A model generated the notes under the pieces. That model had not been told where the DNA came from and searched no databases. It was given only the letters and a program-made list of their open reading frames with translations. Positions 39,695 to 59,337 of a DNA stretch of 64,000 nucleotides are shown here, piece after piece. Position 1 is the first letter of the stretch, and each line of letters starts with the position of its first letter. Source of the DNA: Longimicrobiales bacterium (GTDB lineage Bacteria > Gemmatimonadota > Gemmatimonadetes > Longimicrobiales > Gaopeijiaceae); assembly GCA_965219445.1 (NCBI GenBank), contig CBDCNQ010000003.1, positions 446,098 to 510,097 on the forward strand. Direction: 5' to 3'. Position numbers and translations under genes: made by a program.

Positions 39695-39708
39695 CTCGAA
39701 GCTCGGCG

Positions 39709-40944: not shown

Positions 40945-40951
40945 GGGCGGC

Positions 40952-41257: not shown

Positions 41258-42502
41258 TCATGAGACCATCGCCTTTCGCAGCACCAGCGTCGCATTGCTG
41301 CCACCAAAAGCAAATGAGTTCGTAAGGGCGTACTCCAGGCCCGGCGCCTCTCGGCCGACCAACGGCACGCAATCCAGGTCGCACGCCGGATCGGGATCGG
41401 TGAGGTTCGAGGTGGGAGCGATCCGGCCGGTCTGTAGCGTGCGAACCGTCAACGCGGCCTCCAAGGCGCTCGCGGCACCGATCAGGTGGCCGTGAACCGA
41501 TTTCGTTGAGCTTATAGCCAGCTTGTCGGTGTGCGAGCCGAACGTGTCCCTGATGGCCTCCGCCTCCACTCGGTCTCCCAGGATCGTGCCCGTAGCATGT
41601 GCATTGACATACCCGACACGTTCGTCCGAAACGGCGGCGTCCTCCAGCGCCAGGCGCATGGCACGAGCCTGACCGTCCGGAGAAGGCTCCGTAAGGTTAT
41701 ACGCATCACTGGAGACCCCGTAGCCCACGATCTCTGCCAGGGGCTCGGCACCTCTGGCTCGAGCTGCGCTTTCGCTCTCGAGCACCAGAACAATGGCGCC
41801 CTCCCCGAGCACCAGGCCTGTACGGTGGGTGTCGAACGGCCGGCTTGAAGCTTCGGCTCCGGTCACATGCTCCCTCGCGAGGACGCTCAGTTCCCCCCAG
41901 GCGGCCAGGGTCCCGGCGTTGAGTTGAGCTTCGGCGCCGCCGGCTACGACCGTATCCAGGTAGCCATGTCGAATCGCACGGAACGCCTCGCCGATCGCGG
42001 CGGCAGAGGAGACGCACGCGATGGAATAGGTCACGGTCGGGCCGAAAATTCCATATTGCATGGAGATGTGGGAGGCCGGGCCACTCGCCATGATCATCGG
42101 GGTGGTGGCGGCTCTCAGCCTCCTGGGCGGATTCGCCAAATAACGCTCATAGTGGGCCTGAAGCTCTTCGGAGCCCCCCAATCCACACCCAATGTAAATC
42201 CCCGCCTCTGCCGGTCCGGCGCCGGATACCAACAGGCCTGATCCCTCCAGGGCATGATGCGCGGCGACAACCGCCATCTTGCTGGCCCGTGACATATAGC
42301 GTCCCTGCAGCCTGGGGATCAGGGGGTCGGGGTCGAAGTCGACGGGCGAGAGAAGCATGTCCCTCCTCGACCCGTTGGCTTCGACCTGCACCTTCTGGAT
42401 CGCGGATTCTCCGGCAAAAACCTGATCGAACACCTCGTTCAGGTCGTCCCCGTGAGGAGATACAACGCCGATTCCTGTGATGTACGTGCGGCGCAGGGGC
42501 AC
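41258..42502 (-). CDS. Beta-ketoacyl-ACP synthase (FabF-like) 1
   Basis: SIACVSS, YVNAHATGT, STKSVHGH, TNSFAFGGSN. Confidence 0.92.
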   Translation of the reverse strand: MPLRRTYITGIGVVSPHGDDLNEVFDQVFAGESAIQKVQVEANGSRRDMLLSPVDFDPDPLIPRLQGRYMSRASKMAVVAAHHALEGSGLLVSGAGPAEAGIYIGCGLGGSEELQAHYERYLANPPRRLRAATTPMIMASGPASHISMQYGIFGPTVTYSIACVSSAAAIGEAFRAIRHGYLDTVVAGGAEAQLNAGTLAAWGELSVLAREHVTGAEASSRPFDTHRTGLVLGEGAIVLVLESESAARARGAEPLAEIVGYGVSSDAYNLTEPSPDGQARAMRLALEDAAVSDERVGYVNAHATGTILGDRVEAEAIRDTFGSHTDKLAISSTKSVHGHLIGAASALEAALTVRTLQTGRIAPTSNLTDPDPACDLDCVPLVGREAPGLEYALTNSFAFGGSNATLVLRKAMVS

Positions 42503-42507: not shown

Positions 42508-42747
42508 TCAGAGTCCCTTGGCCTCGATCAACTCGTCGGCTAGGGCTGCCGCCTCACCTAGGGTGGAAAAATTAACCTGCTCGGTTGAGAACTTGATACC
42601 GAACTCATCCTCTAATTCCCGCACCATCTCCATCGTGGAAAGGGAGTCCAGGCCCAGACCGGTCGGCGATGCCTCCGGGACCAACTCACCGGCGCTCACG
42701 CCAAATTCCTCCACCAAGAGCTTGACGAGAAAATCATGCGACTTCAA
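42508..42747 (-). CDS. Acyl carrier protein 1
   Basis: TTG start after SD GGAGG; LGLDSLSTMEMVRELEDEFGI. Confidence 0.9.
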   Translation of the reverse strand: MKSHDFLVKLLVEEFGVSAGELVPEASPTGLGLDSLSTMEMVRELEDEFGIKFSTEQVNFSTLGEAAALADELIEAKGL

Positions 42748-42835
42748 CGGCGGCCTCCAACCTGTTTTTGAGCAAGTATCGTGGGGGGGTCGGTTTAACA
42801 TATCATCCACGGGCGATTCGCGCCCGTTTGGGTAT

Positions 42836-43855
42836 CTATAGCCAACCTTCCCGTCGGTACCATGCGCCCGTGATCCGTGTTCCCTCGTCGAAGGAAATGC
42901 GAGGTTTCCAGCCAAGCGCGGCTTGCGCTTCCGCTGAGTCGCAAACCCAGTGTGGGGCTAATAACTCGTTCAGCTTGTCCCGTGTCAACATGACCGCACG
43001 TCCCATGACCCTTCCGTAGAGTTCGCTTCCCAGAGCCGCCCCATACATAAAGAAGCGGGGCACCGGAATGCGCAACCAGGCGCGCCTACCGAGCGCGTTT
43101 TCGATGTGGGAAACCAGTCCTCCCAGAGTCTCCAGGCGTCCGTCCTCGACGAAAAATGTAGAGCCGCTAGGCACCTTGGCTTCCAGCGCCTTGATACACG
43201 CAGTCGCGCAGTCGGCGGCGAAGATAGCACTCATCCGGGAACTCGGCGAACCCGTCAAAGGAAGGACGCCCAGCTGTACGGACTTGAAGAAGGGAAGGGT
43301 CTCCCGATCTCGGGGTCCATAGATCATGGGAGGTCTGATGATGGTGATGGAAAGCGAGTCTGCCAGTGCTCGCGCGGCCTGTTCTGCGGCCAGCTTGCTC
43401 CGCCCATAGTGGGTCACGGGATTGGGAGACGCCTCCGCGTGGACGGGACGTCCGTCCTCGCTCGGCCCCATCACCGCCAACGACGAGACCAACACGAAGC
43501 GCCCGATATCCGGAGCATTTTTTTTTGCCGCATGGAGCAGATTAGCAGTCCCCTGCGCGTTCGTCTCGTGGAAGTCGGCGGGCTCCCTGGCCTTCACCAA
43601 ACCAGCGGCGTGGATAATCCCCTCCACACCCTCCGTCGCCGCAAGTAAGCTCGCCTTGTCGCTCATAGCCCCGGACAGAAGTGTCACATGCTCGAGGCCC
43701 TCCAGAAATCGGGTATCACTCGTCGGACGGACCAATGCACGGACCTCGGCACCCTGTTGATCGAGTTGCTCGGCAATATGAGAGCCGAGAAATCCCGAGG
43801 CTCCGGTCAGCAAGATTCGCAAAGACTTTCGTCCCCTCTTGGGCTGATCGTCCAA
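42836..43855 (-). CDS. Extended-SDR NAD(P)-dependent reductase; putative ceramide/3-oxo reductase (CerR-like)
   Basis: TGASGFLG, HAAG, VSSLA, YGRSK, RPPMIYGPRD; directly downstream of spt. Confidence 0.72.
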   Translation of the reverse strand: MDDQPKRGRKSLRILLTGASGFLGSHIAEQLDQQGAEVRALVRPTSDTRFLEGLEHVTLLSGAMSDKASLLAATEGVEGIIHAAGLVKAREPADFHETNAQGTANLLHAAKKNAPDIGRFVLVSSLAVMGPSEDGRPVHAEASPNPVTHYGRSKLAAEQAARALADSLSITIIRPPMIYGPRDRETLPFFKSVQLGVLPLTGSPSSRMSAIFAADCATACIKALEAKVPSGSTFFVEDGRLETLGGLVSHIENALGRRAWLRIPVPRFFMYGAALGSELYGRVMGRAVMLTRDKLNELLAPHWVCDSAEAQAALGWKPRISFDEGTRITGAWYRREGWL

Positions 43856-43900: not shown

Positions 43901-45124
43901 TCAGATCACCCCGAGCTTCCTACCAGCGCTTCGGAGGGCTTCGAGGCCTCGATCGAGATGTTCGCCTTCATGGGTGGCCATGTAGCTGGTACGCAATAAG
44001 GAGTGACGTGGCCGCACGCCCGGCGAGATAAATGGGTTCGTGTACACGGAGTGATCCTCCAGTAGCGTCCTCCAAAACTCCAGCGTCCGCGAATTATCCC
44101 GAATGTAGATCGGGATTATGGCACTCTCGGTGTCACTCAACTCGAAGCCCATCCCCGCGAGCTCGTCCTTCATGTAGCTGTAATTCTCCCTCAACTTTTC
44201 AATTCTCCAGGTCTCTTCTTGCATCACGTCGAATGCGGCCATTGCGGCCGCGATACTGGACGGTGCGCCACTGGCCGCGAACATGAAAGAAGGTGCAAAA
44301 TGCCTGATGTAATCCAGAACCTTGCGCTCTCCGACGAGATACCCGCCGACACTGGCCAGGGATTTGCTGAAGGTGCCTCCGATCAGGTCGACCTCACCCT
44401 CCAATCCGAAGTAATGCGCAGTGCCGCGGCCCCCCGGTCCGGTCACTCCGAACGCGTGCGCGTCGTCCACGAAAAGTCTCGCCCCATGCTCCTTGATTAC
44501 CGGAACGAGATCGTCGAGCCTCGCGATATCCCCCTCGACGCTGAACACGCCATCCGTCATCACGAGTGCGCATTCATCGGTGTTGAGCTTGGAGAGAGCG
44601 CGGTCCAAAGAAGCCGCCACGTTGTGCCTGAACCGAACCATGCGCCCGCCCGATGCCTGGCCCAGCCGTACGCCGTCGTAGATCGACGCATGCACACTCC
44701 GGTCGAGCACGGCGACGTTGTTCTCCCCGCCGAGCAAGGCGGAGCCTACGGCGAGGTTCACTTGATAACCCGTGGTGAAGACGAGTGCGGACTCTCTCCC
44801 ATAGAATGAGGCGATTTTCTCTTCGAATTCGCCATGCAGCATCATGGATCCATTCACAAAGCGAGAACCCGTCATGCTCGTTCCGAACCTGGCGATGGCG
44901 GCGACTGCCGCTTCCCGGACCTTGGGGTGCGTCGTCAGGCCCAAGTAGTTGTTCGAACCGAACATCGTCACACGCTTGCCGTCGATCACGGCCTCGGGTC
45001 CGTCGTTGTAGTCGAAAGGCTTGAAATACGGGTAGACGCCCGCCTTCCTGGCGTCGTCCGCAGCTCGGAACGTGAACGCCTTGCTCAAAACATCGGACGC
45101 GAGATCGGAGGCGCTTTCAGACAC
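43901..45124 (-). CDS. spt: Serine palmitoyltransferase (alpha-oxoamine synthase)
   Basis: YPYF, MFGSNNYLGL, GSRFVNG, TTGYQVN, HASIYDG, DDAH, GTFSKSLAS; clustered with ACPs, CerR-like and bCerS-like genes. Confidence 0.82.
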   Translation of the reverse strand: MSESASDLASDVLSKAFTFRAADDARKAGVYPYFKPFDYNDGPEAVIDGKRVTMFGSNNYLGLTTHPKVREAAVAAIARFGTSMTGSRFVNGSMMLHGEFEEKIASFYGRESALVFTTGYQVNLAVGSALLGGENNVAVLDRSVHASIYDGVRLGQASGGRMVRFRHNVAASLDRALSKLNTDECALVMTDGVFSVEGDIARLDDLVPVIKEHGARLFVDDAHAFGVTGPGGRGTAHYFGLEGEVDLIGGTFSKSLASVGGYLVGERKVLDYIRHFAPSFMFAASGAPSSIAAAMAAFDVMQEETWRIEKLRENYSYMKDELAGMGFELSDTESAIIPIYIRDNSRTLEFWRTLLEDHSVYTNPFISPGVRPRHSLLRTSYMATHEGEHLDRGLEALRSAGRKLGVI

Positions 45125-45285: not shown

Positions 45286-45981
45286 TCAAAGGAAGCTGTA
45301 CAGTAGCACGGCCGAGATACCTGCGCCCGCAGCGAGCCACTTCCAGTTGTCGTGGAAAAAATTGATCACGTGAGTGTCCCACCCCGCCCAGGTGTTCCCG
45401 CGAAGGTGGGCCACGTAGGAGACGTCCCGGTCACCGTGCCCGTGCTCGTCGAGCGAAAGGATTCGCATGCCTTCGCTCGTACCGTGCTCGCGCAGCCGCC
45501 CAGTGAGAAAGAGAGGGCCCGCCGTCGTGAGGACGCGTAGGTGCCGTGGCCACACCTTGCCCCACTTCATGTAGGCCCGCGGAAGCGAGGCGACCGCATG
45601 GTGAAACAGTGAATGACCCTTTACGGAAAGCATGAATTGGTTCGATACGCCGAAGGGCGTCGTCCGTGGAAGTACCACGTCGGCGTCGAGGAGTGCATCG
45701 ATCGGGCGGAGACACACCAGGTCCAGATCCGCGTAAACCCCTCCGAACTCTCTGAGAATGACGTACCTCGCTGCATCGACTCTCTGAATGGCGTCGGGAT
45801 ACTTCTCATACAGGGGGACGAGTTCGGGTGCACGTTCCCGCATGAGTGCCGCTAGATCCTTGTCGGTCCAGAAGCGGTACTCCCAGTCGGGGTGCGCCTC
45901 CCGCCAACTGCGCTGGGCATCGAGGAACCGGCCCGGGACGTCCCGATCCTTCCAGGTCTGATGAATCACGCGTGGAATCAT
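45286..45981 (-). CDS. GT32 DXD glycosyltransferase (Och1/Sur1-like) with C-terminal TM
   Basis: MIPRVIHQTWK, HPDWEYRFWTD, DAARYVILREFGGVYADLD, AGPLFLT. Confidence 0.85.
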   Translation of the reverse strand: MIPRVIHQTWKDRDVPGRFLDAQRSWREAHPDWEYRFWTDKDLAALMRERAPELVPLYEKYPDAIQRVDAARYVILREFGGVYADLDLVCLRPIDALLDADVVLPRTTPFGVSNQFMLSVKGHSLFHHAVASLPRAYMKWGKVWPRHLRVLTTAGPLFLTGRLREHGTSEGMRILSLDEHGHGDRDVSYVAHLRGNTWAGWDTHVINFFHDNWKWLAAGAGISAVLLYSFL

Positions 45982-47126
45982 GGCGAGGGACCGAGCGGCT
46001 TCTCGTAGATGCGCCACCGTTTATAGGGCTCCAAGTCCATCCCCTCGAGGGGTGCGGTCAGTGACTCATTGTCCTCGAGAATCCACGACGCCTCCGCTCC
46101 TTCAGCACGGATTCTCGTCGCACGGTGGGCCACCTCGAGGGCAAAGAGCGGGAAAAAGCCCCGGTTCTGGTATTCTCGCCTGAGCCCCAACAGGACGATG
46201 CGCCCGTTGACGACCTTGGGGAGTCCGATGAGGAGGCGGACGATATTCCACGGCCAAAGCCGTCCGGACGGTATCCGGCGAAGCACACGGTTCATGTCCC
46301 GGGCGATCATGATGAAGCCGACTGTCTTTCCATCGAGTTCCGCTATGAACGCGAAATCGGGATGCAGGACCGACTTCAGATCCTTCGCGATATGCCAAAA
46401 CTCCTCCCAAGACGGGGGGACGAAGCCCCAGTTCCCGTCCCATGCGTCGCAGTACAGGTCGAAGGCCTCTCTCACCTCCTCTTCCATCGTGTCGAAGTCC
46501 CACGCCCGGAAAACGAGGCGGGTCCTCTGAAGGGTCCTCTCTGCAAGCCGGCGCACCCGATCAGGAAACTCCATTTCGTCCCCGGCTGGTAGATAATACC
46601 CAAGGAGGTCCCGGGCACGGGAATAGCCGGCCCGCTCGATCAAGGAGCCATAGTATGCCGGGTTCCAGGGTGTCATGATCACCGGTGGGAAGTCGAACCC
46701 GTCGACGAGGACGCCGCACTCATGGTTCATCGACGGGCTCACTGGACCACGTACTGCATCCAGCCCTCGCTCGGCAAGCCACCCCTCCGCCCGCTCGAAG
46801 AGCGCGTTCGCGGCCTCCTGATCGTCACGACAGTCGAAAAATCCGAAAAACCCGACACGATCATCGTGATATTGGTTGTGCCATCGGTTCTCGATCGCCG
46901 CGACCCTCCCCACGGCCCGGCCATTCCGCCGGGCAATGAAGAGCGCCCGTTCGGCCTTTTGATAGAAAGGGTTGCCACGCCGATCGAGGCCATCCCTTAC
47001 GACCGCTCGTAACGGTGGAATCCAGCCAAGCGAAACAGGTTGATCGTGGACTCTCCAAGCGGTGTCTACAAAACGAGACGTACCCCACCGCCCCTTTACG
47101 TGGATGATCTCGAGGGACCCACTCAC
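45978..47126 (-). CDS. GNAT-fold N-acyltransferase; putative bacterial ceramide synthase (bCerS-like)
   Basis: NPFY, GRVAAI, GFFGFFDC, GPVSPSMN, MTPWNPAYY, WGFVP, SWILEDN, KRWRIYEK; spt context. Confidence 0.75.
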   Translation of the reverse strand: MSGSLEIIHVKGRWGTSRFVDTAWRVHDQPVSLGWIPPLRAVVRDGLDRRGNPFYQKAERALFIARRNGRAVGRVAAIENRWHNQYHDDRVGFFGFFDCRDDQEAANALFERAEGWLAERGLDAVRGPVSPSMNHECGVLVDGFDFPPVIMTPWNPAYYGSLIERAGYSRARDLLGYYLPAGDEMEFPDRVRRLAERTLQRTRLVFRAWDFDTMEEEVREAFDLYCDAWDGNWGFVPPSWEEFWHIAKDLKSVLHPDFAFIAELDGKTVGFIMIARDMNRVLRRIPSGRLWPWNIVRLLIGLPKVVNGRIVLLGLRREYQNRGFFPLFALEVAHRATRIRAEGAEASWILEDNESLTAPLEGMDLEPYKRWRIYEKPLGPSP

Positions 47127-48055
47127 TTGGAGGCGCTGCCCAGTCGACGCACCGTCGTGAAGTAGTGCATGTCCGATTCGCTCCTGAAGAATCGGATGAG
47201 GGAATCGACCAACCATTTCGCCAGAAAGCTATGAGCCTTGGATCTGACCGCTACGAGGGCCGTGTAAATCCATCGGACCAGCGGCCTCAGGAAGGGAAGA
47301 AAGATGAGAAAATTGTCGGAGACGCTCCGGGACAAGGAAAATGAGGGCGATTCGAAAAACGTGAGATTGTCGCTGTGCTGGTCCAGATCGTGCGCTGAGA
47401 AGAGGGCATCGATGTCCTCGTCACTCGAATGTCTTCCAACCTTCTCTCCGATCGAGTCGAGAATGGTTCGGGTCGTCGATCCGTCTCCGTCACGATTCGC
47501 CACGGTCGGGGCAACCGAGCGGTCAGCACCGAGGAATCGCGCAAGCTGCGCCGCAAAGTCGGGCTCCTCGATATTCACAACTAGAAGCTTTCCCTTCCGG
47601 TCACTGAAGTAGCGAATCACGTGTTCATGGTATGAATTCCGGATCCGGACCCACCTCAGCACTGCTTCGTCCCGGTTATCGAGGACCCACCGGTTGATGA
47701 TCCAGGCAACAAACCCGAGTGGAACGTACTTGGTGAGGGCCCAATGAACGGCTTTCCGGGATCGCTCCACCGCCTTGTGTCGGCTTAGCACCCAGTGCTT
47801 CAGCGGTCTCGTGTTGAGGACGAAGAGTGCCTCGGGATAGAGATCATCGAGGTTCTTGATGGAAGCACATCCGCCATCGGTGAACGCCCCGAACGGGTCG
47901 AGTCGGGTTCGATTCTTGATGATCGACCAATCTGTCCATCGCGGCTTATGGGCGGAGCGATAAGAGAGTTGATCGCCCAGGATCCTGTGCAGCGTGGTTG
48001 TGCCGGTCTTGTTGAAGCCGACGCAGAAGACCTTTGGGTGCCCCCGGTCTTGCAC
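47123..48055 (-). CDS. Sulfotransferase (P-loop) with hydrophobic C-terminus
   Basis: KVFCVGFNKTGTTTL, YPEALFVLNTRP...WVLS, YFSDR..LLVVNI; SD GAGGAG. Confidence 0.8.
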   Translation of the reverse strand: MQDRGHPKVFCVGFNKTGTTTLHRILGDQLSYRSAHKPRWTDWSIIKNRTRLDPFGAFTDGGCASIKNLDDLYPEALFVLNTRPLKHWVLSRHKAVERSRKAVHWALTKYVPLGFVAWIINRWVLDNRDEAVLRWVRIRNSYHEHVIRYFSDRKGKLLVVNIEEPDFAAQLARFLGADRSVAPTVANRDGDGSTTRTILDSIGEKVGRHSSDEDIDALFSAHDLDQHSDNLTFFESPSFSLSRSVSDNFLIFLPFLRPLVRWIYTALVAVRSKAHSFLAKWLVDSLIRFFRSESDMHYFTTVRRLGSASK

Positions 48056-48595: not shown

Positions 48596-50479
48596 ATGTT
48601 CCATTCGAGCGCCCACGAGCGGATGACTGCACCGGATAAGGAGACGCAAGCAACGCCCCTCGGCGTCCTCCGCTGCTACTGGCGGGTGGTCGACGCCAAG
48701 GTGTGGCACCTGGCCGTACCGATGGGCATGATCCTGCTCGCAAGCGCCTTCGAAGGGGCCTCATTCTCACTTCTCATCCCGCTCAAGGACGCGGTGGTGG
48801 CGAACTCCTTCGACTTCCTGGAGAGGTCGAGAGGCTTCGGATGGATTCTATGGCTCGTGCCGGACGGTCTGGACCCGTCGGCTCGAGACGCCTACCTCGT
48901 GCTCTGCATCGCCGTCCTGATCATTCTCGGTCGAATAGGGAAGCTGGCACTCCAATACGCTACCCGGCTCGTCGTGACGGCGCGCAACGAACGGTACCGG
49001 GTCAAGGTTGGCAGGGAGACGTTCGGGAGGGTTCTCGTGTTCGGACGGCAGTACTTCGACGGCCAGGCGATCGGGAGAATCGATGCGGAGATCGGGTGGT
49101 CCAGCTCCGTGCTCGGCCTGTTGATCGCGGCTCAGGAGCTCTTCCGTTACGTGGTCTCACTGCTCGTGAAGGCCGGCGTGATGGTGGCGATCTCAATCCC
49201 GCTCTCGATCGCCTTCATCGTGACTCTTCCGTTGGTGCAACGTCTGGTGGCCGCGGTCAATCGGACGGTGAAGCGTATCTCCGAAGAGGGTGTCGAGGTG
49301 GACCGGCAGATCCGCGCACAGATCCTCGACCTGCTGGCGACGATTCCGCTCGTAAAAGCATACTCGCAGGAAGAGACCGCTTCGGGGATGTACGAAGAGG
49401 TTCTCCACGAGGGGGAGAGCGTGGCGGTTCGGCGTGAGCGGGCCATCGGCATTCGCTATCCCATCGAGGAAATCACGATCCTCCTTGCGATGCTCCTCGT
49501 GCAGGGCGTGTTCATCTATGCGACTGGGGATTTTCGCCCGGCCGACCTGGCTGTTTTCGGTGCCTTTCTCATCGTCCTTCAGCAGGCACTTCGTGACTAC
49601 AAGTTGATCAGCCGTTTCAGCCTCCGCGTCTTTGAAGAACTCCCTCGCTTGGAAGCCGTGGCCGGACTCTTTTCTGACGAGGGCAAGTTCATCGTGCCCT
49701 CCGGTGAGAAGGGTTTTGGAGGGCTCGAGCACCAGATCGAGGTCTCCCATCTCAACTTCCGCTACGCGCAAGCAACTGCTGAGGCGCTGCACGACCTGAA
49801 CACGACGATCGCCGCCGGTAAAGTCACTGCTATCGTGGGCTCCAGTGGAGCGGGTAAGACGACATTCGTCGATCTCCTCGCGCGCTTCTACGACTGCGAA
49901 CCCGGCACGATCCTCCTCGATGGCACCGACATCCGGGAGTACTCCCTCTCGTCGCTGCATTCCCGCATGGCGATCGTCAGCCAGGACGTTTGGCTATTGA
50001 ACCGATCCTTGCGCGACAATCTCACGTTTGGGCTCGAACGGACCGTGCCCGACAAGGAATTGGCCCAGGCCCTCGCCGATGTCGAACTGGACGACTTGCT
50101 CGAAGACCTTCCGAGCGGCCTCGACACGGAGGTGGGGGATAGGGGAGTTCGGCTATCTGGGGGACAGCGGCAGCGCATCGCGCTCGCTCAAGCGCTCCTA
50201 CGAGATCCGAACATCGTGATTCTCGACGAGGCGACCTCCGCGCTGGACAGCGTGATCGAGCAGGGCGTGGCGGAGGCGATCAAGAGGCGGCTGAGCGGAC
50301 ACACCCTCATCGTGATCGCACATCGACTGTCCACTATCCGGGACGCGGACCTAATTCTCGTATTCGAGGGCGGCCACATCGTCGAGCACGGCATCTGGAA
50401 TGAGTTGATCGAACGTGGCGGGGCCTTTTACGAACTCTATCGGGCTCAATCCGAGAAGGACACACCGGTCGGAGCTTGA
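48596..50479 (+). CDS. MsbA/PglK-like ABC exporter (TMD+NBD)
   Basis: Six-TM-like N-terminal half; GSSGAGKT, SQD, LSGGQRQR, LDEATSALD, IAHRLST. Confidence 0.92.
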   Translation: MFHSSAHERMTAPDKETQATPLGVLRCYWRVVDAKVWHLAVPMGMILLASAFEGASFSLLIPLKDAVVANSFDFLERSRGFGWILWLVPDGLDPSARDAYLVLCIAVLIILGRIGKLALQYATRLVVTARNERYRVKVGRETFGRVLVFGRQYFDGQAIGRIDAEIGWSSSVLGLLIAAQELFRYVVSLLVKAGVMVAISIPLSIAFIVTLPLVQRLVAAVNRTVKRISEEGVEVDRQIRAQILDLLATIPLVKAYSQEETASGMYEEVLHEGESVAVRRERAIGIRYPIEEITILLAMLLVQGVFIYATGDFRPADLAVFGAFLIVLQQALRDYKLISRFSLRVFEELPRLEAVAGLFSDEGKFIVPSGEKGFGGLEHQIEVSHLNFRYAQATAEALHDLNTTIAAGKVTAIVGSSGAGKTTFVDLLARFYDCEPGTILLDGTDIREYSLSSLHSRMAIVSQDVWLLNRSLRDNLTFGLERTVPDKELAQALADVELDDLLEDLPSGLDTEVGDRGVRLSGGQRQRIALAQALLRDPNIVILDEATSALDSVIEQGVAEAIKRRLSGHTLIVIAHRLSTIRDADLILVFEGGHIVEHGIWNELIERGGAFYELYRAQSEKDTPVGA

Positions 50480-50545: not shown

Positions 50546-52234
50546 GTGAAGTCCGAGCACGACCACGAATCAGTGGAGTTCAGCATGGCAGCGTCCCCCA
50601 CGGTCGGGTATAGCATGGTGGCATCCGGCTCGGCGGGGCGCGTCCTGCGCTGGACGCTCTTTGGCGTCCTTTTGCTAGGGCACCCCTTTTGGGCTCCGCC
50701 CTCTGCGTCGGCGCAAGACCCGGGCCGCATGGGGTCACGCATTCTCTCGGTGGACTCCTGGACAAAAGAGGCGATCGAGCGGCTTCGGGTCAGAGGCTAT
50801 CTGCCCGGGCTGAATCCACTGGCTCAGCCCTATCGCAGAATCGACGTGGCCGCTGAGCTGATCGGCGTCGACGCGGACGCGTTACAAGAGCCGGCAGCCG
50901 GTTGGGTCCGTTTGCTGCTCAGTGAGCTCGCCCCTGAGTTTACACGTCTTTCGGCATCGGAAGATGAAGCAGCGGGGCAGCGAGTGGGCTTCCAGTTCCT
51001 TCTGGGGGCTACCGCCGCGGACAGCCGACGGCGTGATCCCCTGATGCCCTACCGTACCCCCGACAATGAGGGATTGGAGGACCGTGCCTGGCCGTCCTGG
51101 GCGGGCGGGCTTTGGTTAGAGACACATAACGTCGCTGCGGAGACAAGATTGTTCCGGGACATCTGGTTCAAGGAGGTGCACGGAGATCCGGACGGGCAGA
51201 ATCCCGGGGGCTTCAAGTTCCTCGGGCGTACGGACAACGCCTACCTGACGCTCGCCTTTCCGTGGGGCAATATCTGGGTCGGCCGATTCAAACGGAACTG
51301 GGGGCCCATCGGTCAGGCGGGCATGATGATCGGGGACAACGCGACATCGTATCCCCAGATCGGACTCGACCTGGGCAGAGGAAGCCTCAGCTACCGCTTC
51401 ATGGCGGGCGAGCTGCTGTCGCTCAACGGGCGCCAGCGCTACGTCGTGGGCAACCGGCTCGATTACCACCGCGGAGACTTCTGGGTGTCCATCGGTGAAT
51501 CCGCTCTCTATTCGGGAGAGAGCGCCGTGCTTCGCCTCTTCAACCCGTTGGAGTTCATCTTCACCGACCACAGCTCCGAGTTCGACTCGCAGGAGATCTC
51601 GGGAAACTTGATGTTCAACACCATGTTCTGGTGGAAGCTGGGCCAGAGTACGCTCTACGGTGAGTTCGCCCTCGACGATTTCGACCTCAACCCACGCATC
51701 GGGGTGGAGGACCGGGGGATCGAGGCGACCTCCTACCAGATGAGCCTAGGCGGCCGCTATCTGGGTGTATCGGATCGCCTCGAGTTCGGCTTCGACTACC
51801 GTAGAGTCTCGGCGTGGTCCTATCGTTCCCCGGTCCTTACAGAGATTTGGATGCATCTGGATCGGGGACTGGCCGACCCGTGGTCGGACTACGACCGTCT
51901 CACGCTGCGAGCCGACTATTATCCCTCGGTTCAAGGCCTGCGCATTTCACCCGTGCTTCAGTTTCAGCGCAAGGGCGAGGGCGATTACCGCATCCCGTTC
52001 CCGCCGCGGGATGTACAGTTGACTCTACCCGGGATCTTCCACGGGGTGAAGGAGACGACCTGGCGAGTCGCGGTGCAGGGGCGATATCAGCCTCGCCGGG
52101 AGGTCGTCCTGGAGTGGGACCTGGGCCGGAGCTTCATCTCCAATGCGGGCCACGTGGACGGCTCGGATGACGGGCGCTTCTCCTTCCTCGTGCGTCTCGG
52201 GCTCACGTTCGAGCTCTCGTTGGCCCAACCCTGA
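50546..52234 (+). CDS. Wzi-like outer-membrane beta-barrel protein (start uncertain)
   Basis: Signal peptide; IERLRVRGYL...QPYRRIDVA; GRFKRNWGP; LYGEFALDD; alternating beta-strand C-terminus. Confidence 0.65.
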   Translation: MKSEHDHESVEFSMAASPTVGYSMVASGSAGRVLRWTLFGVLLLGHPFWAPPSASAQDPGRMGSRILSVDSWTKEAIERLRVRGYLPGLNPLAQPYRRIDVAAELIGVDADALQEPAAGWVRLLLSELAPEFTRLSASEDEAAGQRVGFQFLLGATAADSRRRDPLMPYRTPDNEGLEDRAWPSWAGGLWLETHNVAAETRLFRDIWFKEVHGDPDGQNPGGFKFLGRTDNAYLTLAFPWGNIWVGRFKRNWGPIGQAGMMIGDNATSYPQIGLDLGRGSLSYRFMAGELLSLNGRQRYVVGNRLDYHRGDFWVSIGESALYSGESAVLRLFNPLEFIFTDHSSEFDSQEISGNLMFNTMFWWKLGQSTLYGEFALDDFDLNPRIGVEDRGIEATSYQMSLGGRYLGVSDRLEFGFDYRRVSAWSYRSPVLTEIWMHLDRGLADPWSDYDRLTLRADYYPSVQGLRISPVLQFQRKGEGDYRIPFPPRDVQLTLPGIFHGVKETTWRVAVQGRYQPRREVVLEWDLGRSFISNAGHVDGSDDGRFSFLVRLGLTFELSLAQP

Positions 52235-52237
52235 CCC

Positions 52238-52987
52238 CTACCTGTCGAGGTAGTCGTCGATCTGGGCCTGGACCCCGAGAAGCTGTACGGCCTCACGTGT
52301 GAACCAAGAGCGATAGGACCTGTGGGCCATCTTACCCGGGTCATCAAGAGGCGCTTCCGTCCTGGAAATACTGCCACGGTGCATTCGCCACACGTTCTTG
52401 AAGGGAAGGTCGTAGGCGCGGGGTAGGGTGCCCGATTCCCGAATCGACAGGAGGGAAAGGAAGATGTCCTCCCCGTTCCATTTGGGCGAACCCCGTGCGA
52501 TCAACTCAGCCGCGGATGGCTCAGCTTCGAGGAATACGTCAGCGTAGGAACGGTGCATCATGAGGCAGCGAGTCAGAACCACCGGTGCCTCCCCCCGCTC
52601 ATATCCGTCGTACGAGTATTCGTAAGCCCTACTGATGCGACGTCCAAAGATCCCGTGCAACGTGTATGGTGCTTGGTCAAACAGGGACTTGAGCGCCGTG
52701 ATCGAGCGTCGGGGCACGACCAGGTCGTCATCCACGATCAATACGGCATCGTTCCTCGCTTCCCTCGCTGCGACGAACCGCAGGGCGAGCCCATAGCGAT
52801 CGTTGAGATCCCAATCATGACGATGGATGATCTCACAGCGGGGGGTGTTGTACGAAAAGCACGCCTTCTCACGCCCGTGAGAGACGTGAATCTCATCGAC
52901 GAGGGGATGCCGGGCGAGCAACGGCAGGATCACGCGGCGCAACCACGCCGGACGATTCCAATTCAGGACGACTACGCTGACGTTCAC
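52238..52987 (-). CDS. GT64-like (EXTL2-type) glycosyltransferase
   Basis: LALRF...NDAVLIVDDD, LHGIFGR, VVLTRCLMMHRSY, NGEDIFLS, H..YRS. Confidence 0.68.
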   Translation of the reverse strand: MNVSVVVLNWNRPAWLRRVILPLLARHPLVDEIHVSHGREKACFSYNTPRCEIIHRHDWDLNDRYGLALRFVAAREARNDAVLIVDDDLVVPRRSITALKSLFDQAPYTLHGIFGRRISRAYEYSYDGYERGEAPVVLTRCLMMHRSYADVFLEAEPSAAELIARGSPKWNGEDIFLSLLSIRESGTLPRAYDLPFKNVWRMHRGSISRTEAPLDDPGKMAHRSYRSWFTREAVQLLGVQAQIDDYLDR

Positions 52988-53943
52988 GGTCCTTCCTGTC
53001 GCTCGAATTCGGAGACGTCGGGATAATATGCGTCGAGAAACTCACCCACCCGCTCGAGCACCCAGGGATCGGGATCCGCTCCCTGGTCATCGTTGAGACA
53101 ATAAAACTTGGGCCGCATCTCCACGAGCGCGTCCAACGCTCGATGCTGCTCTTCTCGGGCATTGTCGATCCGATGAAAGCGGTGGTACTGAAGCAGTTCG
53201 CGTGCCTTTACCGCCTCGGCGTGTCGCCGCTTCGGACCGAGCATCCACATCCGGTAAAGTCGATCCATGCGTAGATCCGATCCGGCCCGGAAGCGGCTAC
53301 TGCGAGTCCGATGCAACGCCTTTCGATTGGCCTCCAACATGGCCTCCCAAAACGGTTTGTAGATGAATCGAGGGCAGTGCTCGAGATGAACGGTGCTGAA
53401 GAGCTTCCATCGTTTTCGATAGATGCGGAATGGAAGCCAGATCCCAAAGTAGGTCCCGAAAACCCTCTGTTTCCCCTTGGCCGTCAAGAAATCCTCTCGA
53501 ACCGTGGGAGCTCCGAAGAGAAAATCGTCGTTCAGATAGAGGAAGTGGTCCGAGAGACCAGGGACCGCATGAACGAAGCTTTCGATCGCCGTCGAGTTGA
53601 ACGTCGGTAGGTAGGGGGCGAAGCCACTCAATTCGTCGTGGTGGACGACATTGACTCTTGGATTGCTCAGGTCGAGCCACCGCGGGACCTGAGGGCGACG
53701 CGTGATGATGTGGACATTTCTGATCCAACCCGCGAACATCGCCACCGACCGGAGGCTATACCGCAATAGATCATACAGGTCGCGAGTACGCTCCGGGTTG
53801 AGGTGGTCCGGGCCCGCCGCGTAGTGGCGCATGTCCGCGTGAAGCTGTGGGTCTTCTCCATCGACCCAGGCATAGACGAGATCGACTTCTGGCGTGCCCT
53901 CGGGCACACTTCCAGGTTTACTCCTCTGTGAGGTCATCTCCAC
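52984..53943 (-). CDS. Stealth family hexose-1-phosphate transferase
   Basis: CR1 VDLVYAWVDGED; CR2 LRYSLRSV..W, LPTFNSTAIE, FLYLNDDF; CR3 HCP; CR4 FYCLND. Confidence 0.92.
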   Translation of the reverse strand: MEMTSQRSKPGSVPEGTPEVDLVYAWVDGEDPQLHADMRHYAAGPDHLNPERTRDLYDLLRYSLRSVAMFAGWIRNVHIITRRPQVPRWLDLSNPRVNVVHHDELSGFAPYLPTFNSTAIESFVHAVPGLSDHFLYLNDDFLFGAPTVREDFLTAKGKQRVFGTYFGIWLPFRIYRKRWKLFSTVHLEHCPRFIYKPFWEAMLEANRKALHRTRSSRFRAGSDLRMDRLYRMWMLGPKRRHAEAVKARELLQYHRFHRIDNAREEQHRALDALVEMRPKFYCLNDDQGADPDPWVLERVGEFLDAYYPDVSEFERQEGP

Positions 53944-54070
53944 AACGTCACTTCAGGCCTGCGAGGTCGTTGGGCGAACGACAGGATTCTCATGGTCAAC
54001 CAAGTTGCTAATCTTCCACGGGAACTCCAACATTCGCTTCTCGGAACAGGCTCACGTTCGTCACCCATCC

Positions 54071-54823
54071 ATGATCATATCTCATAGCCATAAGTTCATA
54101 TTCCTCAAGCCCCGCAAGGTCGCGGGCACAAGCGTCGAGGTCGCGCTTGCACAGCACTGTGGAGAAGATGACATCATCACTCCGATCGGTGCGTTCGACG
54201 CCAGGTGGGACGAGGACCAGTACGCCCATCCGGGGAGGAAATGGCGCGGCTACGGTCGTCACGCGACCCTGAAGCGGGTCCGAAAGAAGCTCGGCCCAGA
54301 GATGTGGGACGATTATTTCAAATTCACCATCACTCGTAACCCGTGGGATCTGGTGGTGTCGCAGTACCACTGGGCGACCCGGATGGACGATGGGGACCCC
54401 TACCAATGGTCCGTTGGGAGGACCTTGAAGCGGTTCTGGAAGAACCCCACCCGCGTGAGGAAGAATTTCAGGGAACTCGGTACGAACCTGGCCCGGACAC
54501 TCCTGAGAACGGATGTGGTCTCGTTCGATTTCTTCGTTAGGCACATGTTGCGCTATTATGAGCCCAATGATCCGTTCTACTTCGACCGTTCGGGCTCGGT
54601 GAGCCTCGACTTTCTCATCCGTTGCGAAGATCTCCAGGGTGACTACACCCTGGTCTGCGAGCGGCTCGGACTACCCACAACGGATCTCCCGTCTCTGAAA
54701 ACGAAGGCCAGACAGGAGCGACAGCATTATTCGGCGTACTACGATGATCGAACAAGAGAACTCGTAGCCAAGATGTATCATCGTCACATCGAGCACTTCG
54801 GATACCGTTTTGAAGAACCTTGA
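54071..54823 (+). CDS. Sulfotransferase family 2
   Basis: MIISHSHKFIFLKPRKVAGTSV, YFKFTITRNPWDLVVSQY, YSAYYD, FGYRF. Confidence 0.88.
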   Translation: MIISHSHKFIFLKPRKVAGTSVEVALAQHCGEDDIITPIGAFDARWDEDQYAHPGRKWRGYGRHATLKRVRKKLGPEMWDDYFKFTITRNPWDLVVSQYHWATRMDDGDPYQWSVGRTLKRFWKNPTRVRKNFRELGTNLARTLLRTDVVSFDFFVRHMLRYYEPNDPFYFDRSGSVSLDFLIRCEDLQGDYTLVCERLGLPTTDLPSLKTKARQERQHYSAYYDDRTRELVAKMYHRHIEHFGYRFEEP

Positions 54824-54870: not shown

Positions 54871-55818
54871 TTGTTTCCGACCCTGCTGATAGCGGGGGCG
54901 CTCAGCGTCGCCGGATACGGCTTGTTTTGCCGGCTGGAGGGCCGACAGCCCGCCCGTGAGATTCTGTATGAGCTCGCACTGATGCGGCGTGACCTCCGCG
55001 ATCTCGATGCCAAAGCTGCCGCGAGGGAGCCGTCGGACCTCGTCGTCGGCCTCACGACCATTCCGAGCCGCCTTCCGTTGTTGCAGCCGACGCTCAAGAG
55101 TCTGCTTCTTCAGAACGCGCCCCCTCGGAAGATCCTGCTTCATCTGCCGACCTACAGTCGCCGCGAACAGGTCGAGTACTCGATCCCCGAAGAGCTCAAA
55201 GAGCTCGAAGTCATTCAGATCATCCGCTCTCCGGACTGGGGACCAGCTACCAAGATCTTGCCGGCACTCCTCGACAGTGATCCGGATCAGCGCGTGGTCG
55301 CGGTGGACGACGACCGTATATACCGGCCCACACTACTCTCGGATCTTCTAGAAGCCTCTGAGCACCATCCAGACGCCGCGGTAGGCTGTTTCGGCCTCAT
55401 CGTTCCCGTGGACCGAATCGACCGCCGACGAGGGCTCGTGGGCCGAACCATCGACGGCCTGCGGTACGGGCGTGGGGTCTCGCTGCGAGGCTCTCGCCTG
55501 CGTCGCCCTCTTCCGGTGGATATCCTTCATGGGTACGGAGGGGTACTGGTTCGCCCACGTTTCTTTGATCTCGAACGCCTGGCGGACCTCGACGGTGCGC
55601 CTGACGCGGCCTGGCTGGAAGACGATACCTGGTTCGCCGCTCACTGCCGGGTGCCGAAGCTGATTGTACCGAACAGCCCCGGGAGCTTCCCGCGCTACTT
55701 TGCCGGAGGCGTATACAGCGGCAGCAGTTTGGGAGTTCACAACCGTGGTGGTGTCGATCCCGAAAGCCGAAACACTACGGTGCTGATGCGTACCTTTAGC
55801 GATCGGTGGATGCCTTGA
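54871..55818 (+). CDS. Membrane-anchored GT-A glycosyltransferase-like protein
   Basis: N-terminal TM; VVGLTTIPSRL, DWGPATKILP, VAVDDD, GYGGVLV, EDDTWF. Confidence 0.72.
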   Translation: MFPTLLIAGALSVAGYGLFCRLEGRQPAREILYELALMRRDLRDLDAKAAAREPSDLVVGLTTIPSRLPLLQPTLKSLLLQNAPPRKILLHLPTYSRREQVEYSIPEELKELEVIQIIRSPDWGPATKILPALLDSDPDQRVVAVDDDRIYRPTLLSDLLEASEHHPDAAVGCFGLIVPVDRIDRRRGLVGRTIDGLRYGRGVSLRGSRLRRPLPVDILHGYGGVLVRPRFFDLERLADLDGAPDAAWLEDDTWFAAHCRVPKLIVPNSPGSFPRYFAGGVYSGSSLGVHNRGGVDPESRNTTVLMRTFSDRWMP

Positions 55819-55820
55819 GC

Positions 55821-56738
55821 ATGGCGCCCGCAACCTTCATCGTCGGGCATCCGCGCTCTGGCACGAGTCTGCTACGGGCGCTGCTGGACAGTCATCCCGA
55901 CCTCCTCGTGATCCCCTTCGAGACACATCTGTTCGACTGGGCCAAGTCTCCAGATCCGGTCACCACCCTACTCGACCGGACTCGGCTTTGGCCCACGCTT
56001 CACCGCCACCGGCCATCCATCTCGAAAGATGAAGTCGGGGACGTCCTCAGACGTGCATTCAGTCAGGCGCTCGACCCACGGACGCGATTGCTCGCCCTGG
56101 TGGAGGGGTGGCGCGAACTCACAGGCGTGCGCCAAGAAACCCGGTGGGTGGAGAAAACCCCTCGTCATCTGTACGAGTCCAACACCCTCCTGAAATGGTT
56201 TCCAGCTGAAGCGAGGGTCCTCGTGATGCGCCGGGATCCTCGGGACGTCATCGCCTCGGTCCTCAAACAGAACCCCTCGCGCCCCCTATTTCAGATGGCG
56301 CTCACGGGGCGGCTCGCCCATCAGGTCCTGATCGAGCACGAGCCGGATCCACGCTTCTTGGTGGTCGGTTATGAAGGACTAGTGCGGGACCCTGCTAGTA
56401 CCATGAGGACGGTTTGTCAGTTTCTCGATATTCCGTACGACCCCGTGGTCGTTACGCCCACCGTTCTTGGGGCGGAGTACTCCGGAAACTCCCGATTCGA
56501 CTCTACGCTCCAAGGTGTCTCCGAGTCAGGGGTGGGCCGTTACCGCGATATCCTCTCGGGGGCTCGGCTGGAACGGACCGAGGCCCTTCTTGCTCCGGTC
56601 CTTTCGGCGGGGGGCTATACTCCGACACTCACGAGCTCTCGGAGCCGTCACCCGATCGCGAGGGCGGCCATCACAATGATTGTTTGGTCGGGACTCTGGC
56701 GCTCACGCGCCCTGAGAGCCGCCTTCGGAGGGGCTTGA
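55821..56738 (+). CDS. Sulfotransferase (Sulfotransfer_1/3-type)
   Basis: FIVGHPRSGTSLL, WVEKTP, RDPRDVIAS, YEGLVRDP. Confidence 0.9.
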   Translation: MAPATFIVGHPRSGTSLLRALLDSHPDLLVIPFETHLFDWAKSPDPVTTLLDRTRLWPTLHRHRPSISKDEVGDVLRRAFSQALDPRTRLLALVEGWRELTGVRQETRWVEKTPRHLYESNTLLKWFPAEARVLVMRRDPRDVIASVLKQNPSRPLFQMALTGRLAHQVLIEHEPDPRFLVVGYEGLVRDPASTMRTVCQFLDIPYDPVVVTPTVLGAEYSGNSRFDSTLQGVSESGVGRYRDILSGARLERTEALLAPVLSAGGYTPTLTSSRSRHPIARAAITMIVWSGLWRSRALRAAFGGA

Positions 56739-56739
56739 G

Positions 56740-57543
56740 ATGGCGATCGCAGTCCATTCGTCCGAGCCGACCTTTTTGTTCTTCTGGAATCACAAAGTCG
56801 CGTCCCGGTCCATCCTCAACGCTCTCCAGGAGTCCTTTCCCGGTCTCCGCGTACACGCCCAACCATCCTTCCGTCCGCCAGTCCAAGACCAAGACTGGCC
56901 CCGCTTCTTGGTGGTCCGCAGCCCATGGGCCAGGGCGGCATCTTGCTACCGGAACAAGTGCCGCAGCGCGATGGAGGCCTTGGAGCGGAATGGCGGTCTG
57001 GAGCCCTGCCAGCGCCATCTGCTCCGTGAGCTCGGAGCATGGCCCTGTCGGTCGCTCACAGGGGCACGCCGATTGGTCGAACTCGATTTCGCGGAATTCG
57101 TGGGGCTGCTGCCCGGCATCCGTGACGGGAACAGCCACTTCCGTCTGCAAGTCGACGTACTTCGCGACGCGGGTTCGATCACGTCCAGAATCCCTTGGGC
57201 TGAACGCGCAACCCGGACCCTCCTTCACTTGGGCCGGACCCACTACCTGATGCCACGGCCGTTAAAAACCCGACCGACGCTAGCAGCCGACCAGGCTGCC
57301 TTGGTGGCGGCACGAAAACAGTCCGTGCGGTCGATTCGCCTGGAAGACCTCCCTGAAGCATGGGGGAGGGTCGAGCAGGCCTTGGGCCGAGCGATTCCAC
57401 TTCCCTGGCACGCGCGGACAGCCCAAGGAGACGACTGGCGGACGCTCTACGACGCGACACTCCAAGCACAGGTGGCCGACCTCTATCGGCCGGACTTGGA
57501 AATGTTCGGATATGACGAGTGGGCACGGCCTCAGAACGTATAG
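56740..57543 (+). CDS. Sulfotransferase family 2
   Basis: WNHKVASRSI, VVRSPWARAASCY, HFRLQ, YRPDLEMFGY. Confidence 0.85.
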   Translation: MAIAVHSSEPTFLFFWNHKVASRSILNALQESFPGLRVHAQPSFRPPVQDQDWPRFLVVRSPWARAASCYRNKCRSAMEALERNGGLEPCQRHLLRELGAWPCRSLTGARRLVELDFAEFVGLLPGIRDGNSHFRLQVDVLRDAGSITSRIPWAERATRTLLHLGRTHYLMPRPLKTRPTLAADQAALVAARKQSVRSIRLEDLPEAWGRVEQALGRAIPLPWHARTAQGDDWRTLYDATLQAQVADLYRPDLEMFGYDEWARPQNV

Positions 57544-58196
57544 CCGAATCGTTCGATATCCGCCTCGTAGAGCGTCCCGACGAGTTCACGAGTCTCGTCG
57601 TCATAATACGCCCGATGGCTGCCGCGATATCGGCCTCGGCCGGTGCGTGGGACACGGTGTGGAAGTGGCACACCCAACCCCTCGAGAAGCGGCGGAAGAC
57701 GGCTCTCGATCTCCTCGAGCTTGATCACCTCGTCCACGAGTGGCCGGCCGGCCTCATCTCCGGCAAAGCCGGCGAAGGAAAACGCCCCGGAGCGAATCAC
57801 GCTCGCGTCCAACCCAGGCGCCCCAGCGCCACGACCCTCGGGATCGAGGGTACGTACCCAGGCCCGGAAGCCCCGGTGACGCGTGGCTCGCCTTCTCAGT
57901 CGGGAGAGCTGGCCTCCCTCGCGGAAGGAGAACATCTCATAAAGCGACACCAAGCGGCTCCACGGATTCCTCACCATCACGAACTTGAAGTAGCCGTCGA
58001 AGTCCCAACCCCGTGAGGCGAAGACATCGCGAAGCTCCACCGGACGCATATGATTGTAGAACGGGAACTCCGCGGTAAGCTCTTCCGCGGGCCGGCCGTG
58101 GATCTCGGAGTGGGCGTCGAGAAGCCGACGGACCGACCTCGAGCCTGTCTTCGGACTCGCGAAGAACACGAATTGGTGTCGATGGGAGATGCGCAT
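57531..58196 (-). CDS. Sulfotransferase family 2
   Basis: MRISHRHQFVFFASPKTGSRSV, YFKFVMVRNPWSRLVSLY, DIERFGYTF. Confidence 0.9.
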   Translation of the reverse strand: MRISHRHQFVFFASPKTGSRSVRRLLDAHSEIHGRPAEELTAEFPFYNHMRPVELRDVFASRGWDFDGYFKFVMVRNPWSRLVSLYEMFSFREGGQLSRLRRRATRHRGFRAWVRTLDPEGRGAGAPGLDASVIRSGAFSFAGFAGDEAGRPLVDEVIKLEEIESRLPPLLEGLGVPLPHRVPRTGRGRYRGSHRAYYDDETRELVGTLYEADIERFGYTF

Positions 58197-59298: not shown

Positions 59299-59337
59299 AT
59301 GATCGTCTCGCACCGGCACCAGTTCGTTTCCCACTAG
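59299..59337 (+). pseudogene. N-terminal remnant of a family-2 sulfotransferase
   Basis: MIVSHRHQFVSH* compared with paralog starts MRISHRHQFV and MIISHSHKFI. Confidence 0.7.

Follow-up and report, generated by a model that had tools for sequence, protein, structure and literature searches.

We identified a tightly linked pair of genes for two predicted sugar-transferring enzymes in a 64,000-nucleotide stretch of DNA, hereafter the window, from a Longimicrobiales bacterium of the phylum Gemmatimonadota (GCA_965219445.1, contig CBDCNQ010000003.1, positions 446,098 to 510,097). The pair (52238..53943 of the window) consists of exactly two minus-strand open reading frames (ORFs): a predicted minimal Stealth hexose(NAc)-1-phosphate transferase (52984..53943, 319 amino acids) and a GT64-like glycosyltransferase of the GT-A type, predicted to be retaining (52238..52987, 249 amino acids). 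The pair lies inside a conserved cluster of genes for predicted ceramide synthesis, export and sulfation, and so likely helps to build a sulfated sugar-phosphate head group of a sphingolipid. The fuller reading, that the pair is the head-group module of a sulfated phospho-glycosphingolipid, with substrates, order of steps and lipid acceptor being what we infer, seems to us evenly balanced between true and false.

Identity of the two predicted enzymes

The first protein exceeded the Pfam cut-offs for three conserved regions (CR) of Stealth proteins: CR2 (PF11380; 118.6 bits against a cut-off of 39.4, E 1.8e-34), CR4 (PF17103; 37.5 bits against 27.4, E 2.3e-9) and CR1 (PF17101; 28.7 bits against 27.2, E 1e-6). 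CR3 stayed under its cut-off (18.3 bits against 24.2), although the essential arginine of that region is retained as R219. A preliminary description of this DNA, made from the letters alone, had reported all four regions, which holds at these cut-offs for CR1, CR2 and CR4, and for CR3 in its key residue. The CR1 motif reads VDLVYAW (residues 20-26), where the published form is IDVVYTF or similar (PMC10668966; this and the other papers are cited here from excerpts of their text).

Searches of PDB sequences with the Stealth protein recovered Drosophila GNPTAB (7dxi, 2.8e-36), the 320-residue catalytic core of CpsY (8j2n, 2.4e-31, residues 19-314 matching CpsY 201-520) and a GNPTAB catalytic-domain construct (7s6n, 3.4e-30). 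In CpsY of Mycobacterium tuberculosis, CR2, a region of about 100 residues, holds the Mg-binding residue D324, CR3 has R419 as its essential arginine, and CR4 is marked by a tetrapeptide, CLND or CIND in the family (PMC10668966). In the 8j2n alignment, with CpsY numbering given as chain index + 200, these pair with D140, R219 and C282-L-N-D285, and D140, R219, C282, N284 and D285 are invariant across the 31 Stealth homologs aligned. The conservation of these residues and the alignment with the CpsY core therefore identify the first gene as that of an intact, minimal Stealth enzyme. Its catalytic core (Mg-binding aspartate, essential arginine and CLND) is complete and, by analogy with characterised relatives, the enzyme would be expected to transfer hexose(NAc)-1-phosphate from a UDP-sugar. 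The CR1-CR4 core, with the aspartate, the arginine and CLND, is shared with CpsY, GNPTAB and the meningococcal enzymes CsaB and CsxA, whereas the 319-residue form lacks their extra N-terminal or spacer domains, has a CR3 under the Pfam cut-off, and is coupled to a GT64-like gene in a ceramide cluster instead of standing in a capsule locus.

For the second protein, the Pfam family Glyco_transf_64 (PF09258) scored 47.7 bits against a cut-off of 21.3 (E 1.6e-12, profile positions 9-217 of 245), and GT2 scored 21.8 bits, below its cut-off of 23.3. An E-value of this size for GT64 lies well outside the range of chance. An AlphaFold model, made with an alignment of 32 homologs, reached a pLDDT of 95.5 and a pTM of 0.92. 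When this model was searched with Foldseek, the first 17 among the matches listed were all GT64 structures with TM-scores of 0.62-0.71, led by EXTL2 (E 3e-13, TM-score 0.67-0.71) and followed by EXT1/EXT2 and EXTL3; GT27, GlfT2 (GT2), heparosan synthase and KfiA came after these, at E ~1e-7. A profile of the GT64-like family, searched against PDB, matched GT64 domains only, at full length and with E-values of 2.2e-16 to 3.5e-11. The possibility that the protein is an ordinary GT2 enzyme, which the preliminary description had named as the outcome that would overturn its assignment, was rejected, since the Pfam scores, the search of PDB by profile and the predicted fold each point to GT64.

Each motif of the EXTL2-type order given in that description is present in the translation, as LRF (69-71), DAVLIVDDD (80-88), GIFGR (112-116), VVLT (136-139), HRSY (145-148) and NGEDI (171-175). 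Residues D86, D88, R116, N171-G-E-D-I175, H222 and R226 are invariant in 32 GT64-like sequences, and D86-D87-D88 and E173-D174 align with the DDD and NCDDI motifs of EXTL2. R116 aligns with EXTL2 R181, and EXTL2 Y193 pairs with Y126, a position without conservation among distant members; in the close clade the nearly invariant tyrosine is Y124. The EXTL2 numbering here is the chain index + 37, an offset presumed from the length of mouse EXTL2. In EXTL3, an H-x3-R stands opposite H222 and R226 in the alignment. In a survey of GT-A enzymes, GT64 is among those retaining the xED aspartate, and the acceptor contacts of EXTL GT64 domains are R181, Y193, H289 and R293 (PMC7185993), of which the last two may have their counterparts in H222 and R226. 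The earlier assignment of the pair to Stealth and GT64-like families thus stands, with the catalytic residues intact. A search of NCBIfam gave no family for either protein.

The animal heparan sulfate alpha-GlcNAc/GalNAc transferases EXTL2, EXT1-EXT2 and EXTL3 offer the nearest structural comparison, being the sole PDB profile matches and sharing the GT-A fold, the DDD metal motif, the xED aspartate, presumed counterparts of the arginines and histidine of the acceptor pocket, and the company of sulfotransferases in the genome. In contrast, sequence identity is only 15-19%, and the bacterial protein is a soluble, stand-alone form of 249 residues, without type II anchor or GT47 partner domain, coupled to a Stealth gene and with no uronic-acid genes nearby.

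Coupling of the two genes and its distribution

The two ORFs overlap by four bases, GTGA (52984..52987, minus strand), in which the GTG start of the GT64-like gene lies over the TGA stop of the Stealth gene, as had been described. An NTGA overlap of the same size is present in 19 of the 25 related loci examined, including a clade at 58% identity, and the other six have a gap of 29-32 bases. Translation of the GT64-like protein is likely coupled to that of Stealth, judging from this arrangement. A scan of 52000-54200 for promoters and terminators gave no signal exceeding that of shuffled sequences. Chance ORFs were ruled out, since dozens of contigs carry both genes with identities of 58-90%.

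We investigated how far the pairing extends by a motif-seeded scan of species genomes, in which 34 loci carrying a GT64-like gene were identified. Seven of these, with GT64 identities of 79-89%, are all from Gemmatimonadota (metagenome-assembled genomes, MAGs, of Longimicrobiales or Gemmatimonadales), and the remaining 27, at 29-44%, are labelled as Planctomycetota, Verrucomicrobiota, Bacteroidota, Bdellovibrio, Haliea, Cyanobacteria, Actinomycetota, Chloroflexota and others. Searches by tblastn with the Stealth protein placed a Stealth gene immediately upstream of the GT64-like gene in all seven close loci and in none of the 27 distant ones. A Pfam scan of 116 ORFs around 23 distant loci likewise found no Stealth; these ORFs were selected from 156, most of the outermost or antisense ones being omitted along with four short or duplicate loci.

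A scan of metagenomes added 80 GT64 loci, 25 of them at 58% identity or more and 55 at 41% or less. In the former group Stealth lies directly upstream in 21 of 21 loci that have upstream DNA, the other four beginning inside or just before the GT64-like gene. Over both scans, the pairing was identified in 28 of 28 loci with a GT64 identity of at least 58% and upstream DNA, and in one of 82 distant loci. The sole exception, from the distant metagenome loci (L067), has a 446-residue Stealth protein encoded some 1.3 kb from the GT64-like gene and on the other strand. Next to these two genes, the contig (L067:7332-10792; GC 0.26) also encodes a Ulp1-type protease, a NIPA transporter and a PI-PLC-Y fragment. 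It forms a second Stealth/GT64 neighbourhood, independent of the first, and may come from a giant virus or a eukaryote. No fusion of Stealth with GT64 was found among the 39 relatives of at least 400 residues within the best 150 profile matches.

The coupling of Stealth and GT64 is thus real, yet specific to one lineage of Gemmatimonadota. Within the phylum the GT64-like family is rare: it was found in two of the 301 genomes searched (the source genome and one congener), and Stealth CR2 in three. In a quick tree, the GT64-like protein falls within a supported clade of seven rows from the lineage carrying the Stealth pairing, surrounded mostly by stand-alone metagenomic sequences. The tree is unrooted and contains no curated eukaryotic references, and is therefore silent on the direction of any transfer.

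The conserved cluster around the pair

The order of the genes Stealth, GT64, (in some loci) a gene for a 562-residue protein, ABC exporter, sulfotransferase, GNAT-type acyltransferase, GT32-type glycosyltransferase, serine palmitoyltransferase (SPT), short-chain dehydrogenase/reductase (SDR) and two ketoacyl synthases is the same in all related contigs of sufficient length. With SPT, SDR, acyl carrier protein (ACP), GNAT, GT32, exporter and sulfotransferases together, it is reasonable to infer a sulfated product built on ceramide.

The candidate ceramide genes form an operon on the minus strand. The SPT-like alpha-oxoamine synthase (43901..45124) was assigned by its rankings: in NCBIfam SPT comes first with 448 bits, below the equivalog cut-off of 640, followed by BioF (326) and KBL (307), and in the PDB search bacterial SPTs are at the top (1.9e-105; KBL 1e-59). 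A candidate ceramide reductase is encoded at 42836..43855 by an NAD-dependent SDR/epimerase-family gene (Pfam Epimerase, 2.3e-36), which in NCBIfam is HpnA/OleD-like, below cut-offs. Between it and the first of two FabF-like ketoacyl synthases (41258..42502 and 39709..41058; Pfam and NCBIfam) we identified a small, unlisted ORF for an ACP (42508..42915), whose translation has an LGLDSL motif, which we take to be an ACP signature, in its C-terminal ~80 residues. This ACP completes an Spt-ACP-reductase arrangement resembling known bacterial sphingolipid loci. The candidate bacterial ceramide synthase is a GNAT-type acyltransferase (45978..47216; weak Pfam GNAT) with at least 1980 homologs, mostly of 373-382 residues, and translation probably begins some 30 codons further downstream than listed. 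As listed, its ORF is overlapped both by that of a sulfotransferase of the same operon (Sulfotransfer_4, 47123..48055; Pfam 1.7e-13) and by that of the GT32-type glycosyltransferase (Gly_transf_sug with DXD, 45286..46017; PF04488, 1.4e-18). The best PDB match of the GT32 protein is an initiation-specific alpha-1,6-mannosyltransferase (9n3s, 2.5e-10). Beyond the ketoacyl synthases, also on the minus strand, lies a LPG_synthase_TM or flippase-like membrane protein with seven transmembrane-like segments (38717..39901; Pfam 4.9e-32).

Clustered Spt, bCerS and CerR are described as a signature of bacterial ceramide synthesis (PMC11334938). The sphingolipid locus of Caulobacter crescentus resembles the present cluster in its grouping of SPT, ACP, SDR-type reductase and GNAT-type acyltransferase, and in having head-group genes alongside, which there lead to an anionic sphingolipid (PMC11324152, PMC11334938), and differs in that its head-group enzymes are a ceramide phosphoglycerate set, as opposed to the Stealth, GT64, GT32 and sulfotransferase genes found here.

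A GNAT homolog was identified in 21 of the 49 genomes of the family. Three (L122-L124) of the eight family-level relatives fetched around this homolog have SPT, GNAT and SDR together, in three different arrangements, and none of the eight had a match to the GT32, ABC, sulfotransferase, Stealth or GT64 genes. This points to an older ceramide-type core, onto which the present lineage added a head-group module.

On the plus strand, next to the GT64-like gene in relatives, lies a fused ABC exporter with transmembrane and nucleotide-binding domains (48596..50479; Pfam ABC_tran and ABC_membrane), which is HepA/MsbA-like and is the only transporter that the Pfam scans of the window ORFs gave. Between the two, in only part of the related loci, is the gene for the 562-residue protein (50546..52234, plus strand), which has no Pfam family, a signal-peptide-like N-terminus and a strand-rich remainder, and may be an outer-membrane protein; its AlphaFold model, from a six-sequence alignment, was unusable (pLDDT 27.4).

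Five or six sulfotransferases surround the pair, four of them on the side opposite the minus-strand operon. Divergent from Stealth, and kept beside it in relatives, is a Sulfotransfer_2 gene on the plus strand (53894..54823; Pfam 6.4e-12). It is followed on that strand by a candidate GT2-like GT-A enzyme with a DDD motif and an N-terminal transmembrane-like segment at residues 1-19 (54871..55818; Pfam GT2 15.7 bits), whose Atlas neighbours are GT2-like (score 0.96-1.0) and which is absent from four related loci (L007, L008, L048 and L052). Further along are a Sulfotransfer_3/1 gene (55806..56738, plus strand; Pfam 1.2e-27), a Sulfotransfer_2 gene (56740..57543, plus strand; Pfam 3.9e-5, 24.3 bits against a cut-off of 22) and a Sulfotransfer_2 gene on the minus strand that covers only the N-terminal profile positions 4-100 of 252 (57531..58196; Pfam 7.9e-11). 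APS kinase is present in the source genome, giving a supply of 3'-phosphoadenosine 5'-phosphosulfate. Just past the sulfotransferase block, an overlapping pair on the minus strand encodes a GDYXXLXY protein and a DUF2157 membrane protein (59334-61177).

Proposed pathway and alternative products

Stealth and GT64 likely act consecutively on the head group of a lipid built on ceramide, and this lipid is predicted to be sulfated and exported afterwards. In the pathway that we propose, SPT, GNAT and SDR would make ceramide, to which the GT32 enzyme, or the GT2-like enzyme where present, would add a first sugar. Stealth would then place hexose(NAc)-1-phosphate from a UDP-sugar on a sugar hydroxyl, forming a phosphodiester as its relatives do on glycans, and GT64 would add an alpha-linked N-acetylhexosamine or hexose, its pocket of R116, H222 and R226 (equated with EXTL2 R181, H289 and R293) perhaps recognising the anionic acceptor. 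Sulfotransferases would decorate the glycan, and the ABC exporter would flip the lipid towards the outer membrane.

Several observations weigh against this pathway. Neither the Stealth nor the GT64-like protein has a transmembrane-like segment in our scan. In NCBIfam the exporter scores higher as HepA (377.8 bits), a polysaccharide-related transporter of heterocyst formation, than as MsbA (339.4 bits), both under cut-off, and the 562-residue protein bears a faint, non-significant resemblance (12.7 bits) to the capsule assembly protein Wzi. The names of the Caulobacter proteins bCerS and CerR are provisional for GNAT and SDR, and name searches for GNAT, in the Atlas and among its homologs, returned generic GNAT labels only and no bCerS. 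The GT64-like gene is not near SPT in the 82 distant loci, so that the family is not sphingolipid-specific, and the family-level relatives that lack the head-group genes mark the module as an add-on, from which action on ceramide does not follow. No Stealth enzyme is known to us that acts on a lipid or on any other acceptor than a sugar. CpsY acts on glucan (PMC10668966), and Stealth enzymes are presented as capsule polymerases that bridge monosaccharides via phosphodiesters (PMC5974469). The preliminary description had proposed a phosphodiester-linked head group analogous to that of plant glycosyl inositol phosphorylceramides but free of inositol; the conserved cluster upholds a ceramide-based sulfated product as reasonable, and direct action of Stealth on ceramide is not supported.

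The glycan acceptors of Stealth, the HepA and Wzi resemblances, and the occurrence of GT64-like genes elsewhere in large glycan islands with sulfotransferases and without SPT all speak for a different product, which we consider unlikely while giving it serious weight: a two-enzyme polymerase, in which the alternating action of Stealth and GT64 yields a poly(disaccharide phosphate) that is sulfated by the neighbouring sulfotransferases and exported by the ABC transporter as a capsule- or exopolysaccharide-like polymer, either unconnected with the ceramide genes or using ceramide only as an anchor. Among the window ORFs covered, Pfam scans found no priming transferase, no Bac_transf or Glycos_transf_4, no Wzx, Wzy, Wza or Wzc, no KpsMTED or other polysaccharide or capsule export family, and none of a group 2-type capsule set (KpsMT-type ABC-2, KpsD/E, KpsS/C); the three Bac_transf genes of the source genome are all on other contigs. 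The place of the pair beside the ceramide operon is moreover fixed in every locus that is long enough, and that operon itself contains a sulfotransferase and a glycosyltransferase, all of which argues against the polymer.

Somewhat less probable is that Stealth puts a sugar-1-phosphate directly on the C1 hydroxyl of ceramide, taking the place of inositol phosphorylceramide (IPC), and that GT64 and GT32 extend it as in the glycosyl inositol phosphorylceramides (GIPC) of plants and mannosyl inositol phosphorylceramides (MIPC) of fungi, before sulfation. The Pfam scan of the cluster found no recognisable ceramide glucosyltransferase, IPC synthase or ceramide phosphoethanolamine synthase type gene, in keeping with this route. 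GT32 is the family of the best structural match, an alpha-mannosyltransferase, and also that of the fungal MIPC synthases. Naka and colleagues are reported to have described a ceramide phosphoryl-mannose in Sphingobacterium spiritivorum in 2003; a literature search for ceramide phosphoryl-mannose returned nothing. The plant GT64 enzymes GMT and GINT glycosylate glucuronic acid (GlcA)-IPC (PMC9113257). Against these points, the Stealth acceptors that we know of or found in the literature are neither lipids nor other non-sugars, the Stealth protein here has no membrane segment, and the GT32 or GT2-like enzyme is equally able to supply a first sugar, as in the pathway outlined above. That the pair modifies another envelope glycoconjugate (lipopolysaccharide core or O-chain, or a glycoprotein), with the sphingolipid genes sharing an envelope island for a different product, we regard as improbable: LpxC is present in the genome, so that lipopolysaccharide is likely made, and the glycan contexts in which Stealth and GT64-like genes turn up are many and unrelated, but synteny with the ceramide operon and exporter is strict across relatives of 58-90% identity, and the Pfam scan found no lipopolysaccharide or protein-glycosylation genes in the cluster.

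The suggestion of the preliminary description that the pair might build a heparan-like sulfated unit has no support beyond the combination of GT64 with sulfotransferases. The Pfam scan of the cluster revealed no GT47, no GT2-type heparosan synthase, and no UDP-glucose dehydrogenase or other uronic-acid genes, so that a heparan-like reading is unsupported.

GT64-like proteins beyond the Gemmatimonadota lineage

We identified 91 homologs of the GT64-like protein in a word-indexed search, 84 of which carry the PF09258 tag. A search with the family profile expanded this to 3620 clusters at 50% identity with E-values of 0.001 or less, 378 of them at 1e-30 or less, and the best 150 profile matches are mostly stand-alone proteins of about 220-280 residues. 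Relatives with names come from about ten bacterial phyla, and are often beside or fused to sulfotransferases. To our knowledge, GT64 enzymes have been characterised only from animals, for heparan sulfate, and plants, for GIPC. The account of the plant enzymes agrees with this eukaryotic characterisation (PMC9113257). The label "eukaryote-type", which the preliminary description had given to the GT64-like protein, is nonetheless misleading, as the protein belongs to a large family, mostly of stand-alone proteins of about 230-280 residues, that is spread over many bacterial phyla.

Among the long relatives, the fusion partners of GT64 are GT2, GT47, sulfotransferase, methyltransferase, PLOD-GT and TOD1 domains. 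Two proteins (P0264 and P0348) are GT64-sulfotransferase fusions with C-terminal sulfotransferase domains, two others (P0236 and P0346) are exostosin-like GT47-GT64 proteins, and one (P0214) is a tandem of 1174 residues with two GT64-like domains.

Sulfotransfer_2-like genes, several of them consecutive in some loci, lie beside a GT64-like gene of 35-40% identity in 14 of the 55 distant metagenome loci (L064, L065, L068, L070-L073, L075-L077 and L079-L082; GC 0.30-0.33 in the four measured). GT32-like genes occur in five of these 14, and in eight of the 55 overall, and neither SPT nor Stealth was found in the 14-locus clade. The only long locus that was Pfam-scanned, L075 (2359-17931), has GT32, GT25, PLOD-GT and Nucleotid_trans genes in a long same-strand island. 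This looks like a large island for a sulfated glycan in a marine organism.

Outside the Gemmatimonadota clade, the GT64-like gene with the highest identity (44%) was found in a Planctomycetota MAG (L009:9140-14960). It is flanked by a PP-binding (ACP-domain) protein and a GT4, a MsbA-like ABC exporter and a 404-residue GNAT, another lipid-flavoured context, here without SPT.

Significance

Both enzymes of the pair come from known families, their coupling and context are new, and their product is predicted to be an undescribed class of lipid. No paper linking a Stealth protein to ceramide was found in our literature searches; those combining GT64, bacteria and sphingolipids returned, as judged by titles and abstracts, work on plants or general glycobiology, and nothing relevant was returned on gemmatimonads with sphingolipids and serine palmitoyltransferase together. 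The plant enzymes GMT1 and GINT1 belong to the same CAZy-type family and act on a phosphodiester-bearing sphingolipid head group (PMC9113257), which parallels the sphingolipid-type cluster found here, a likeness of family and context. The plant acceptor, in contrast, is GlcA-inositol-phosphate-ceramide, and no inositol or GlcA genes were seen in the present cluster. It is a doubtful proposal that the Gemmatimonadota cluster encodes an inositol-free bacterial counterpart of GIPC, with the first lipid-directed Stealth enzyme and an extension by GT64 as by GMT1 and GINT1, giving a polysulfated phospho-glycosphingolipid in the outer membrane of marine Gemmatimonadota.

The bacterial GT64 branch, with its 3620 clusters, is large and unstudied, and is repeatedly linked or fused to sulfotransferases. 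The small, soluble enzyme pair described here thus bears on what bacterial GT64 enzymes make, and on how complex anionic sphingolipids arise in bacteria. If the proposed pathway is true, the sulfated phospho-glycosphingolipid that it yields would add a new class to the envelope lipids of bacteria.

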